From a virus (Duplodnaviria; Heunggongvirae; Uroviricota; Caudoviricetes), in the IMG/VR virus record IMGVR_UViG_2526164634_000028: a stretch of 41,531 bases of DNA; one strand, 5' to 3'. Made by a program: the position numbers. Positions 36,001-41,531 of this stretch are shown here, one piece after another (positions within the stretch are counted from its first letter, which is position 1; every line of letters begins with the position of its first letter).

Positions 36001-39000
36001 TTTGGATGCACTGGCGTTCGTGATCGGGATAATCATTTCATAATTTGCAACATAACTCAATATCATTGCATAAAATGCAATTCTGATTATAATCAGGACT
36101 GGATAAACATCCAGTTATGATTTTTTTAGTCGAAGAGGAATTTCTTACTATGGCTGAAGAGAAAAAAGGCGGTGTTTCGGTGTACATAAGCCCCGAAATC
36201 GTGGAGGTGCTCAAGCAGCGCCACAAAAAAAACTATGAAGCTGGCGTTGCGGCTGGACTGGATCCGCTGATGACGCCGGAGCCGTCGATAGGTTCACTTG
36301 TACGCTCTTATTTACTTGCGGCGCTTGGGATGCATAAAAATTATGGGGGTGAATAATGGCAGGCAAAGCAACGGCACTTAACACTAACCAGCTTTTCATG
36401 TACCTGAATCGCGGGGATATTGCGGATTTTAAATTCAGCCCTCTGTTTACCACGCTGTTTTTCCCGAACGTGGCGACATTCAGCACGCAAAACATCATGC
36501 TGGATACCCTGGACATTGAAGAAGTCACCATGTCGGCGTTTTGTTCGCCTATGGTGGGTAGCCAGGTTCAGCGCGATAAAGGGTACGAAACCAGCACAAT
36601 CAAACCTGGCTACATGAAGCCAAAGCACGAAATCGATCCAACGAAAACCATCATGCGCATGGCTGGAGAAGATCCGGCACAGCTTAACGACCCTACCTAT
36701 CGCCGTATGCGCCTGATTACTGGCAACATGCGCCGCCAGATAAACGCCATTAAGGCACGCGTGGAATGGCTGGCGGTGAATGCGGTAACGACCGGAAAAA
36801 ACATCATTGAGGGCGAAGGCATAGAACGCTATGAAATCGACTGGAAAATACCGGAAAACTGCATCATAGAGCAGGCCAAGGGTAAAAAATGGTCCGAGCA
36901 GGATAAAGACATGCACGACCCAATCTATGACATCGAGCTTTATGCTGATCAGGCTGGTTGCCCCGCAAACGTCATGATTATGGGCGCTGAGGTATGGCGC
37001 ACATTACGCAGCTTTAAAAAATTCCGTGAGCTGTACGATCTTTCCCGTGGTTCAGAATCCGCCGCCGAACTGGCCTGTAAAAACCTGGGCGAAGTGGTGA
37101 GCTTTAAAGGCTATCTTGGTGATCTGGCCCTTATCGTCTATTCCGGCAAATACACTGACAGCGATGGTACCGAAAAATATTTCCTTGAGCCTGATTTGCT
37201 GGTCCTGGGTAACACCAACAATAAAGGGCTGGTGGCCTATGGTGCGATAATGGATCAGGAAGCGGTAAGAACGGGCGCAACACAAAACATGTTTTACCCG
37301 AAAAACTGGATTGAGGACGGCGATCCGGCGATTGAGTACGTGCAGACACACAGTGCACCGCAGCCGGTACCGGCAGATATTCGCAAATTTGTTACCGTCA
37401 AAATTGGTTAACGGGGGGATTCTATGGACACTCCATACATTGAGTTATTTGCAGGCAGTCAGCAGGTATCCACGACGTTGGTACATTTTGCCGCTGATGC
37501 TGGCGTTATTCAGGAATTTACCCCGCTGATGCTGGCAGACAATGGCGAGTTTAAGCCGTGGGATGGTCAGGAATCTGGCAAGGCTGTTTATCTGACCTCG
37601 TACCCTGTGGACACGTCAAAGCAGAAATCAGCACAGTGTTACAAGACGGGGATATTCAATATTGCCGCCGTTAACTGGCCTGAGAGCGTCGACACCGATG
37701 CGAAAAAATGCGCCGCCTTTGCGGGTTCCGGCGTATCCGTTCAGCCGCTGGCCCGATAAGCAGGGGGAACGATGGCAACGAATGAAAGCATCATGACGCT
37801 ACCGCTGGCGAGTAAATTTAAAGTCGAAGCGCGGGCAATGGCTGACAGAGGTTTATCAACCTATGAGGCCGTATATCAACTAAACAAACTGGAAGAGCAG
37901 GACAAGCCGCGCGCTGATGCGATTATGGCGCTTCATGAGCATAAAGACTATCAGCCGCTGTTGCGTGCAATGGCAAACGTGCCTTGTATCGATGTTGGTA
38001 CGGCTAAAAGCATCCTTAGCATGACCATAGAGCAGGAACGTCCGAAGGTTGCGCCGGAACTTACCGCAGCCTTTGAAAACTTTATGGACATGCACAGCCC
38101 GCAAGCCGTATCAGCTGGCATGGCATACGATGGCAGAAACCAGGGCGATGACGGCGACATCGATCGCATACTGAAAACCATCTGAGACAAGGCCGGAGAA
38201 ATCCGGCTTTTTTACGGGTCCTTCCTGGAATTATGGCCCGTTACGGGGCGGCGACCTCGCGGATTTTCGCTATTTATGAGCCTTTTCAGGGGGGTGGTGG
38301 TGGTTTTGTTGTTTGATCTATCTTTATGAATGAAAAGGGAAAGATGCAAGCAATACACCAACCTGAAGCAGTAATTAAGTTGGTGTATTAATGAAATCTC
38401 ATCTGATGAACAAAAAAAACATGGCGAAAAGCTGCCGTGTAAGTGCGACAGCGTTCGACAAGTGGGGAGTAACTCCCGTTGAGCGTAAAGGCCGTGAGGC
38501 GTTTTATGATGTTGCCAGCGTGATAGAAAATAGGGTTAACAATGCAATTAGCCAGCTTATAAACGACAAAGGCGAGATTGACGATGATGAACTTTTACGA
38601 GTCAGGATCAGATTACTGACAGCACAGGCAGAGGCGCAGGAACTTAAAAACGATCGCGATCGCGGTGACGTGATTGATACTGAGTTTTGCCTGTACGCGC
38701 TTTCAAAGCTGGCGAGTCAGATTTCATCAATCATGGACAGCCTCCCGCTTACTATGCAAAGGAGCTTCCCACAGATTACCCCCGCCATGCTGGACAGGCT
38801 TAAAAGGGAAGTGGTTAAAGCCTGTAATGCCAGTGCCAGAGTTGCCGACAACCTCCCACAGATACTGGCTGATTACTTGAAAGAAACAACCGGAAACGTA
38901 CCGGAAAAGTTGCTACAGAAGAAAGGCGAGTAACAGACACGCAATTATTGAACAAAAATGAGAAAGGATCTGATAATGGCATTTTCTGGCTAAAATGCCT

Positions 39001-41531
39001 CGTGTCAGATCCTTTCTTTTTTTAATATTTTCATTGTTAAACAGTCTGTTACAGAGAAGAAGATCGGATCTGACTTTTGCCGGAAAATTCTCATAAACAG
39101 ATAAAAACCGCGAGGTCGCCGCCCCGTAACGGGCCATAATTCCAGGAAGGACCCGACGACACCAGACTATCAGAGCGATGGGGGCACAATGACAGAAGCC
39201 GAACTACTGGGATTAATCCGCCGCGTCGCCGGAATCAGCCAGCAGCATGACGAACAGGCCACACAGCCGGACAGCGTGACCGCTGAAAATTATGTGCGTG
39301 TTGTAGCGGAAGTGATGCGCCGTGATGGTATAGAACTTAATGGCGTTGATATGCGCAACATACGGAACCGCGTTCTTGAAATGCTGGCCTACAATCGCCG
39401 CGTTGAACTGTATCGGGAGAAAGAAAAATAACGTACCACTGGAAGAAGCCGGAACGGCTGCGGCGGTAACTTGCTGATATTCCCGATAACGCAAAATTGC
39501 GCTGGCTACATCCCTCACATCTGAGGACTGTTAATCAGAAGGCCGGAATATATTCACAAACTACGAAATTTTCGTAGTTTAATTAATGGTCAGATTAATC
39601 GCTAACCCGCTGATATTTTCGGAAACCTCAATTTGAGGAAGTCGGAAGCGTCACCCTTCATATTCTGAATGGTCATAATGACCACGCAGACCATCAAGGC
39701 AACCACAACGAACATCGTTACGGTTGGAGCTTTTACCCCACTGGGGGAAAGGTATTACGATAATCATAACACCTACCGAACAGGTAAAACCCACCAGCCT
39801 GATTAACAGTTAACCGGAAAAAAAATCCGGTAGCCCCGTTATGGGGATCCCCATATCGACATTAACGCCCCTCATGAATTGGTGCGCTTCCCCCTGGAAA
39901 GATTACCCGCCTGTATATTTCTTGTGTCTATTTGTTCCACGTTGTTTCATACAGTGCACCGAACGGTGTAGTTAATGGTGTAGTCAATTTGCTGTTTTTA
40001 GCACTTTTTGCAGTGTGGGTTGTTTAATTAAATCAATGGGTTGCCTTGCTGTGGTGATAAAAGGACATATTTATTCATCTTTCGGCGCAGAATGCTGGCG
40101 ACCAAAAATCACCTCCATCCGCGCACCGCCCAGCATGCTCTCTCCGGCGACGATTTTACCCTCATATTGCTCGGTGATTTCGCGGGCTACCGCCAGCCCT
40201 ACACCTTGCCCAGGGCGTAAAGTATCAACCCGTTGACCACGGTCGAAAATGACCTCTCGCTTGCTTAATGGAATACCGGGGCCATCATCCTCGACCACAA
40301 TATAGAGATGCTCGTCGGTTTGCCTTGCAGAAATTTCGACAAACTCGAGGCAATATTTACAGGCATTATCCAGCACGTTGCCCATCACCTCGACAAAATC
40401 GTTCTGCTCACCGACAAAGCTGATCTCTGGCGAAATATCGAGAGAGATATTGACCCCTTTGCGTTGATACACTTTGTTCAGCGCTGAGGTGAGATTGTCC
40501 AGCAGTGGGGCGACCGGATGCAGCTCGCGGCTGAGCAATGTCCCGCCGCGCATACTGGCACGATGCAGGTAGTAGCCAATTTGCTGTGAAATGCGGCTGA
40601 TTTGCTCCAGCATTACCGGCTCAGCATCACTGACGCTCATCTTTTCACTACGCAGAGAACGCAGCGTACTTTGCAGCACCGCCAGTGGCGTTTTCAGACT
40701 ATGGGTCAGGTCGGTGAGCGTCGTACGGTATTTGTCGTAACGTTCGCGTTCACTTTTTAACAATCGGTTCAGGTTTCGTACCAGACTGGTCAGTTCTCGC
40801 GTTGTGGCTGGATTGAGCAATTCGCGGTTATGTTCTTCTAGTTCGCGGACTTCTTTTGCCAGGGCTTCGATGGGGCGTAAACTCCACCAGGCGGCGACCC
40901 ACAGCAGCGGGATCACTAACAGCAGATTGGCTGAGAGCACATAGATAAACCAGCTCCAGACCATATAGGAACTTTTTAGCTCCACCGGAATGGTATCCAC
41001 CACCACAAAGGTTAATTTTGGCATCCGCGATGTTGCCGGGTAGACGTTTACTGCCACCGAGTGGGTCATCTCCGCGTCGTCATCATCTTCCCGCACTTCC
41101 TGCAACTGTTGCTGTATCGAATGATCTCCACTTAGCAAGAGGCTGGTATCGTTAACATCCGCTTCAATTTCATGAAAACCATTCGATTTCAGCCAGTCAG
41201 GCTGGATCATCTTCATCAGCCAGGGCACGTCACGTTGCGCCCATAAAAGCTGCCCGTTCTCATCATAAATTAGCGTCATGGTGGGGCTTTGCTTGTCGAT
41301 ATTTTCGGGTAACTCGACATGCAACTTATTGTTTTCCCACTTCGCAAGGGTATAGAACAGATTGCTCTCGCCACGTAACAGCCGAAACGTAGTTTTATCG
41401 AAACTGACGCTATAACCGATCAGCGCGACCATTCCGTAGGCAAGCGAAAGCACCAGTACTACCGCAGCCGTTGCCAACAGAAAACGTACCCGCAGTGAGA
41501 GCGGGAAAAAAAGACGCAGTAATTTTTTCAT

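Follow-up and report, generated by a model that had tools for sequence, protein, structure and literature searches.

The DNA analysed here is a 41,531-nucleotide stretch recorded in IMG/VR as IMGVR_UViG_2526164634_000028 (the window, by which we mean the whole of this stretch), and the element of interest in it is a satellite island whose small terminase gene, terS, lies between two lambda-type cos sites pointing in opposite directions. The last part of the island, after a gene for a protein of 137 amino acids (aa), consists of this cos-terS-cos segment followed by an open reading frame (ORF) of 80 aa. The two sites are called copy A and copy B below, and related loci are designated by the numbers of our survey (L001 and so on).

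28988-39984, plus strand: whole satellite island (phage-inducible chromosomal island, PICI; EcCICFT073 family, O-island-51 type) in the roxA-phoQ interval, unit of 10,976 bp
38215-38262, plus strand: core of copy A (the published cos1), with cosQ GGGTCCT at 38216-38222 and cosN at 38246-38257
38258-38390, plus strand: compact, N15-like cosB of copy A, an I2-like segment and three R-like elements
38293-38304, plus strand: R3-like element of copy A, GGTGGTGGTGGT, bp 48-59 from cosN
38350-38365: R2-like element of copy A, GCAATACACCAACCTG, inverted
38378-38389: R1-like element of copy A, AGTTGGTGTATT
38391-38933, plus strand: terS ORF, Nu1 family, likely start ATG at 38406 (175 aa), Pfam Phage_Nu1 E = 3e-23
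38959-39112, minus strand: cosB of copy B, lambda-style tripartite R3-I1-R2-R1
38959-38975, minus strand: R1 of copy B
39002-39018, minus strand: R2 of copy B, inverted
39019-39060, minus strand: I1-like, A/T-rich segment of copy B
39061-39077, minus strand: R3 of copy B (AAAGTCAGATCCGATCT)
39078-39112, minus strand: I2-like segment of copy B
39108-39155, minus strand: core of copy B (the published cos2), with cosN at 39113-39124 and cosQ at 39148-39154

A repeat search revealed inverted arms of 76 nt (38215-38290 and 39080-39155, 91% complementary) which bracket the terS ORF and contain the perfect 48-bp cores listed above. Within the window there are exactly two occurrences of the 12-mer GGGCGGCGACCT of the lambda cohesive end, one per core, against a chance expectation of 0.22 matches with one mismatch permitted. 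Comparison with the lambda genome (NC_001416) identified in both arms a cosQ GGGTCCT placed 30 nt 5' of cosN, the lambda cosN and an I2-like segment. We recognised a lambda-type cos by a cosQ about 30 nt upstream of cosN, the 12-mer with flanking CG, an I2 segment and a cosB bearing a TerS-binding R element at about bp 48-65, and all of these are present in copy A and in copy B. By sequence, both copies thus qualify as lambda-type cos sites, and cleavage function has been published only for the homologous sites of EcCICFT073 (PMC6092414).

The sequence-only reading of this DNA had proposed two inverted lambda-type cos copies flanking a Nu1-like terS, and the repeat search, the lambda comparison and Pfam bear this out, together with the 48 bp of perfect identity that include the 12-nt cohesive end in both copies. 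Its coordinates for copy B (39108-39155) hold, and those for copy A (38214-38261) are one base off. It was also right that copy A precedes terS as in a phage and that the more lambda-like flank belongs to copy B, which possesses a complete R3-I1-R2-R1 cosB 73% identical to that of lambda. An alignment to reference lambda had been named beforehand as able to overturn the assignment, and it upheld the match to cosN. An assembly artefact is ruled out, since at least 481 complete genomes of E. coli show the same colinear arrangement and the homologue in strain CFT073 has been experimentally tested (PMC6092414, PMC6739421). The full 48-bp identity of the window reflects a left cosQ flank homogenised to the right-hand type, a state shared with a minority of islands; in most islands, the flipped ones described below included, the perfect identity of the arms covers only about 25 bp centred on cosN. 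In one terS island (L055) the cosQ flank of copy A is of the lambda or phage type (CGGCGATCCGACAGGTTACG) in place of the island type, which suggests recombination between island and phage at cos.

The protein encoded between the two sites has no close phage relative in INPHARED; its best match there is gp1 of N15, with 44% identity overall. In its DNA-binding domain it is 57% identical to N15 gp1, and in core and C-terminus it comes nearest to PhiR5_1. The C-terminal motif LPxxLxxYL is the one found in the TerS proteins of lambda, N15 and PhiR5_1. The cosB regions of the two copies differ in kind. Copy A is compact, with a cosN-to-ORF distance of 133 nt, and its R3-like element at bp 48-59 falls in the register of the N15 R3 (GAGGTTGTTGTT; N15 position from PMC4669245). 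Copy B is identical to lambda cosB at 117 of 160 positions with no shift of register, and its R core reads TCAGATCC(G/T)xTCT, compared with TCGTTTCC(G/T)TTCT in lambda. The difference lies at bp 55-57, and bp 56 and bp 59 are known to set the specificity of lambda versus 21 (PMC4669245).

Dual cos sites are already published for this island family, a point that the sequence-only reading missed. The cos1 and cos2 sites of EcCICFT073 were described as functional in 2018-2019 (Fillol-Salom et al., ISME J, PMC6092414; Mol Cell, PMC6739421). Fig S5a of the first paper gives cos.1 of CFT073 as the plus-strand site upstream of rppA and cos.2 as the downstream site, printed as the reverse complement; these sequences match copies A and B of EcCICFT073 (L004), and hence copy A of the window is the counterpart of cos1, and copy B that of cos2. 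The two islands have the same sequence in the cosQ-cosN flank of copy B. Each of the EcCICFT073 sites, when cloned, supports transduction of a plasmid by lambda and phi80, and in transfer of the island itself deletion of cos1 lowers, deletion of cos2 raises and deletion of both abolishes transfer (PMC6092414). The heterocomplex of RppA and helper TerS recognises the cosB of cos1 (PMC6739421). The suggestion of the sequence-only reading that inverted sites could permit packaging in either direction fits both the anatomy and the published activity of cos1 and cos2 (PMC6092414). The discoverers of these islands asked why some of them have two different cos sites and left the question unanswered. 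The words "inverted" and "orientation" are absent from the main text of the 2019 paper (PMC6739421), Murialdo and Feiss (2022) treated only the Rpp-associated site and never mentioned cos1, cos2 or paired cos sites, and in the literature searched cos2 is mentioned only by the two founding papers (PMC6092414, PMC6739421).

The window island departs from its published relative in its TerS cargo and in the N15-like cognate site of that cargo. An Rpp is a protein of about 144-153 aa with a TerS-like DNA-binding domain and without the TerL-binding C-terminus; the cargo found here is a full-length protein of the Phage_Nu1 family (175-180 aa) that ends in LPxxLxxYL, and the island is therefore a TerS-type variant of the EcCICFT073 family. 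What we add to the published picture is a comparative answer to the question of the second site, and the natural inversion and exchange of the cos-bounded cassette.

Related islands were collected from IMG/VR by an exact-match scan with the 24-nt island core CCCGTTACGGGGCGGCGACCTCGC, at the position of which phages carry CAGGTTACG. The scan returned 80 loci, which were oriented on the capsid gene. Scans of genome contigs with the 137-aa protein and with the 24-nt core gave no matches, and the cross-species survey therefore rests on IMG/VR and on genomes of E. coli. The comparison of islands with one and with two cos copies, which the sequence-only reading had called for, gave 56 two-cos and 6 single-cos islands in IMG/VR. 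In all 62 two-cos islands examined (56 of them from IMG/VR) the sites converge, their cosB sides turned towards each other. Their cassettes fall into four classes, namely terS (855 bp), CFT073-type rppA (727 bp), an rpp variant (747 bp) and cargo-less (512-518 bp), the last made up of a pair of tripartite cosB modules, placed back to back on either side of a 72-bp remnant of rpp. In the single-cos terS islands (L007, L012, L026, L042, L052, L057) terS stands at the same offset from copy A, their only cos, and the entire cosB-cosN-cosQ block of copy B is missing, and the terS stop lies within about 11 nt of the 80-aa ORF; the C-terminus of their TerS is slightly different. This single-cos state could be either ancestral or the result of a deletion.

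Three comparisons point to which site goes with which protein. The copy A cosB is of one type in 32 of 32 two-cos terS islands, and across islands with the same TerS the R3-I1-R2-R1 block of copy B is of at least three unrelated types between conserved borders (TCAGATCC; CATGTCGG/GACACGG; phi4-like). CFT073 and L002 are identical in the 5' region of rpp and in the copy A cosB and carry unrelated copy B cosB regions. Island L006 is a chimera: the 5' part of its terS, coding for the DNA-binding domain, and the cosB adjacent to it are both of a different type, and it agrees with the window in the 3' part of terS and in the other cosB. Thus, variation in the site that precedes the cargo gene goes with variation in the gene itself, and the second site changes independently.

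This second site appears, from its R elements, to copy the sites of real phages. When E. coli genomes were searched with the R region of copy B, lambdoid prophages came up with the gene order lysis genes-cos-terS-terL-portal (L091, L093), in which the same R core, TCAGATCC(G/T)xTCT, stands upstream of terS-terL; their R3, R2 and R1 read ATCAGATCCGTTCT..., GGATCTGAC and TCAGATCCTTTCT, and the R block of L091 is 79% identical to that of copy B. The cos2 of L002 has the exact N15 R3 at bp 48-59 and two more such elements, an arrangement of the Monarch type. The third type of copy B block in the terS class, seen in L038, is 75% identical to the cosB of the phi4 prophage of CFT073, and the R motifs of CFT073 cos2, CATGTCCGG, resemble the CATGTCGG of the same prophage. 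The TerS of the L091 group ends in WIDDFRRTEGG, a C-terminus of the 21/phi4 type, in place of the LPxxLxxYL of the island TerS, which weakly suggests that copy A and copy B may address helpers with different large subunits.

In our judgement the best explanation, and a probable one, is that the island offers two entry points for packaging, which differ in terminase specificity and are inverted so that neither ends packaging begun at the other. This proposal draws on the anatomy of the sites, their homology to cos1 and cos2, the linkage of the copy A cosB to TerS, the swapping of the copy B cosB, the match of its R elements to phages and the natural inversions; to these it would add the pairing of each protein with its site, a benefit in helper range and a reason for the inversion. 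The rules established for lambda lead to it: initiation needs cosN and a cognate cosB, termination needs cosQ, cosN and I2 whatever the type of cosB, and lambda- and 21-specific terminases do not cross-package (PMC4669245). Each copy would be a complete packaging site (cosQ-cosN-I2-cosB) with a cosB specificity of its own. Copy A would be the cognate site of the N15-like TerS of the island, which would recruit the large terminase of a helper; copy B would mimic the tripartite cosB of one lambdoid group, and the unmodified terminase of such a helper could start there. From either site the motor would cross the 0.87-kb cassette, pass the other site in its non-terminating polarity and stop at the next copy of the same orientation on the concatemer, four units (43.9 kb) being expected to fill a head of lambda size. 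Were the two sites in direct orientation, either could act as a terminator for packaging from the other, and the cargo gene would be lost by recombination between the repeats. Under these rules two sites 0.87 kb apart could coexist without aberrant genomes or loss of cargo only if inverted. Such a layout would, as a by-product, make the cassette between the cosN sites invertible and exchangeable.

Several points weigh against two entry points. Packaging function was demonstrated on the homologous EcCICFT073 sites and not on a terS-type island (PMC6092414), and there the deletion of cos2 increases transfer by lambda and phi80, the helpers tested (PMC6092414), so that cos2 is dispensable and mildly harmful with these two phages. 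Copy B is wholly missing in 6 of the 62 IMG/VR islands. Its matching prophages are just 79% identical over the R block and are rarely co-resident with the island (at most 55 extra places among 649 genomes), and the phages of INPHARED contain no R elements close to those of copy B, only its cosQ-cosN-I2 part finding a match. The assignment of TerL partners is based on a short C-terminal motif, and the polarity argument for the inverted layout is extrapolated from the biology of lambda. The prophage next to the island (window 1 to about 20 kb) was considered as helper or as source of copy B and rejected, as it has a split terL, a small terminase of the DUF1441 type and no lambda Nu1 or cos.

Some of the same facts would suit a copy B that is a non-functional scar, left when a terS or rpp cassette was acquired at cos and persisting by linkage only; the sequence-only reading had likewise named the scar of a cassette acquisition. 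In partial relatives homology breaks off at the cos copies (at query positions 541-543, and at 1472-1490 a little beyond copy B), the cassettes are mosaic, six islands lack copy B, and loss of cos2 from EcCICFT073 does not lower its transfer by lambda or phi80 (PMC6092414). A scar would, however, hardly retain cosQ, cosN, I2 and three R elements in the right register in nearly all islands, and the R block of copy B is not decaying: it is swapped for other complete cosB types. Moreover, cloned cos2 of EcCICFT073 transduces a plasmid, and the double deletion is worse than deletion of cos1 alone (PMC6092414). With its cosB intact, or replaced by intact types, we regard a scar as unlikely to be the whole story. 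Less likely again is that copy B serves mainly as an interference decoy, titrating or misdirecting the helper terminase away from phage DNA, with transfer of the island incidental. Copy B does possess phage-type R elements, and blocking of helper packaging is a central strategy of PICIs (PMC6739421); yet a sink of one additional binding site in each 11-kb unit is weak, and cutting at copy B would still package the complete island, which makes a decoy hard to tell from a second entry point.

The cassette has inverted in nature. A chimeric query for the inverted junction gave full-length matches in four complete genomes, three clean flips and one chimera. L005 has its terS on the opposite strand: the 855-bp interval between the cosN sites is reversed over its full length, with 92.4% identity, and the cosQ flanks are unmoved. 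The interior of L094 is identical to that of EcCICFT073 at 727 of 727 positions and reversed, at the same chromosomal site. Reversal over 512 of 512 positions with 99.6% identity distinguishes L028 from L043, and L070 and L079 have opposite orientations on backbones that differ at 1 of 1,500 positions. The flips are not clonal. Orientation is strongly biased for terS, with at least 481 forward against 3-4 flipped among complete genomes; for rpp the forward junction was found in 69 complete genomes and the flipped rppA junction, full-length, in 15. The two orientations of the cargo-less cassette number 9 and 3 in complete genomes and 5 and 4 in IMG/VR. The genome of strain GF4 (NZ_CP172217.1) has two islands with a cargo-less cassette, at 5149432 and 1063195, one in each orientation. 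In IMG/VR none of the 46 cargo-bearing and 4 of the 9 cargo-less cassettes are flipped; selection against flips when cargo is present fits this sample and is weakened by the 15 complete genomes with a flipped rppA cassette.

These counts bear on a programmed switch of the Hin/Gin type, which would make terS expression or packaging direction phase-variable. Both orientations do exist in nature, sometimes with identical cassette sequence, and the cargo-less cassette shows the two orientations in the numbers given above. A Hin/Gin/Fim-type switch is made of a dedicated invertase and short inverted sites; here the repeats are the cos sites themselves, there is no invertase gene in or beside the cassette, and the sole recombinase of the island is the attachment-site integrase 9 kb away. 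Together with the absence of an invertase, the strong bias of terS makes a programmed switch highly improbable, and the orientation counts, for rpp as for terS, indicate rare, lineage-fixed events. Of the invertible terS cassette that the sequence-only reading had envisaged, the clean cosN-bounded inversions in populations (L005, L094, the cargo-less cassettes) stand, and a fast switch does not. Bidirectional lateral transduction of the flanking chromosome is unlikely, as packaging from a cos depends on a further cos downstream in the correct orientation, and a recent paper states that lateral transduction is not carried out by cos phages (PMC12829572).

As for how the cassette inverts, homologous recombination or gene conversion between the arms is one possible route, and the cosQ flanks homogenised in the window, in the flipped L094 and in others show that such exchange takes place. 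A second candidate is the terminase itself. If it cut at both inverted cosN sites, it would free a cassette with a 5'-GGGCGGCGACCT overhang at each end and leave a backbone with two complementary overhangs, to be re-annealed and ligated in either orientation or with the cassette of a co-resident island or phage. Because the overhang is the same at both cassette ends, double cutting and rejoining is chemically possible, and it would explain clean inversions bounded by perfect identity of no more than about 25 bp with cosN at its centre. The position of the breakpoints does not separate the two mechanisms, because both predict them in the shared core of about 25 bp. We hold the terminase route as a tentative possibility only; if true, it would amount to a natural restriction-ligation system shuffling packaging-specificity modules among satellites and lambdoid phages.

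The remainder of the island supports its assignment. Its architecture is that of a Gram-negative PICI, judged by an integrase at one end, transcription on a single strand, an AlpA-type regulator, a replication module of its own, attachment repeats, and two lambda-type cos flanking a packaging-redirection gene; the unit length also falls in the 10-15 kb or so of the definition, to which a specific attachment site unused by prophages belongs as well. The boundaries are a 21-bp direct repeat, CGGTGTAGTTAATGGTGTAGT, at 28988 and 39964, with roxA (27665-28795) on one side and phoQ at the right end of the window on the other. With annotation taken from L001 and L004, the genes preceding the cos-terS-cos segment encode an integrase, an AlpA-type helix-turn-helix regulator, an Icd-like protein, a RepA helicase, SSB, PerC, an E-like capsid protein, a D-like decoration protein and the 137-aa protein. 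Gene order is the same as in L001 and EcCICFT073, and L001, from strain 95NR1, is near-identical (99.8% over a 2-kb query). Published work on induction, excision, replication and high-frequency transfer by helpers covers only EcCICFT073 and a few relatives, and the 2018 paper equates the EcCICFT073 family with O-island 51 of O157 (PMC6092414). The backbone features around the cassette are the following.

36356-37411, plus strand: E-like major capsid protein, Pfam Phage_cap_E 5.5e-50
37424-37759, plus strand: D-like head decoration protein, Pfam HDPD 5e-18
37772-38185, plus strand: 137-aa protein, the backbone gene upstream of copy A
38191-38214, plus strand: GC-rich hairpin GGCCGGAGAAATCCGGC followed by T6, terminator-like, predicted folding energy of the RNA -14.1 kcal/mol, abutting the cosQ of copy A
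39189-39431, plus strand: conserved 80-aa backbone ORF downstream of copy B, in nearly all islands

The backbone genes upstream of copy A (36356-38185) correspond to c1499/c1500 of EcCICFT073 (PMC6092414), and the 80-aa ORF has no Pfam match. A comparison of left flanks found the hairpin conserved in all islands, and it probably ends transcription of the capsid operon; it was not called by a simple terminator scan, and a promoter scan revealed no convincing promoter between it and terS. The island integrase (29014-30263) is split into two ORFs by a 1-nt deletion in an A-run at about 29606, relative to the otherwise identical intact gene of 95NR1 (L001), and this is either a pseudogene, in which case the island is not self-excising, or a homopolymer sequencing error.

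Outside the island, the neighbouring prophage is defective. At window 1-334 and 335-1960 its terL is truncated by ISEc22, an insertion sequence of the IS66 family, beyond which a related genome (L095) has the 5' part of terL and a small terminase of the DUF1441 type. A low-GC stretch at about 20000-24000 (0.34-0.40, compared with about 0.55 in the late region of the prophage), flanked by the tail genes of the prophage and by potB, has the look of a moron or cargo region. Another island family was noticed in L092 (NZ_CM176496.1, about 3380-4560; int, ash, DUF1441, PerC), where terS lies between two convergent cos-like sites whose cohesive-end regions differ from that of lambda and from each other (e.g., GGGGCGGCAGACG), with R elements of the TCAGATCC type on one side and of the CATGTCGG type on the other. 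NZ_AP026906.1 (pMY504-4; 17,111 bp, linear), annotated as a plasmid, contains lambdoid lysis, cos, terminase and head genes and is probably a prophage fragment or unplaced contig, not a plasmid.

Two entry points would give a testable answer to the question of why these islands have two cos sites, one being tied to the TerS or Rpp of the island and the other a swappable copy of a helper recognition site. If this is true, the satellite uses two incompatible terminase systems and thereby gains a broader helper range. The experimentally studied segment of EcCICFT073 occurs naturally in the opposite orientation with its sequence unchanged, and hence the cos sites act as recombination joints that shuffle packaging modules. 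These properties are relevant to the spread of virulence-associated islands, as the family includes O-island 51 of O157 and carries the regulators PerC and RgdR, and to the design of delivery vehicles based on PICIs or cosmids.

Among known systems EcCICFT073 is the nearest. It shares with the window island the roxA-phoQ integration site, the backbone of capsid, decoration, 137-aa and 80-aa genes, and two convergent lambda-type cos at equal positions around one small cargo gene. Its cargo, however, is a truncated Rpp of 144 aa that pairs with helper TerS, whereas that of the window is a full-length TerS of the Nu1/N15 family. Its copy A cosB is of the Rpp type with R3 only, compared with an N15-like tripartite variant in the window; its copy B R elements are of the CCGGACATG type and not of the TCAGATCC type; and its perfect repeat measures 25 bp against 48 bp. 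With the cos of lambda both sites share the identical 12-nt cohesive end, the cosQ spacing and the I2-like segment, and copy B also the cosB register at 73% identity. Unlike lambda, the island has two inverted sites per replicon, no terL after terS, and GATCCG in place of TTTCCG in the R element around bp 55-57. N15 and the Monarch group (Feiss et al. 2015, PMC4669245) resemble it in the TerS DNA-binding domain (57%), in the R3-like G/T-rich element at bp 48-59 and in the compact distance from cos to terS, and the related island L002 even has the exact N15 R3 in a tripartite, Monarch-like arrangement; the R element itself is different (GGTGGTGGTGGT in the window, GAGGTTGTTGTT in N15), the cosN is of the lambda and not the N15 type, and the island is a satellite and not a phage. 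The TerS systems of SaPIs use headful (pac) packaging and not cos, and have no sequence or host relation to the island. They nevertheless embody the same strategy, in which a TerS encoded by the satellite captures the large terminase of the helper. Of the SaPI cos islands SaPIbov4 and SaPIbov5, the first has likewise been reported to have two putative cos sites (PMC6092414).

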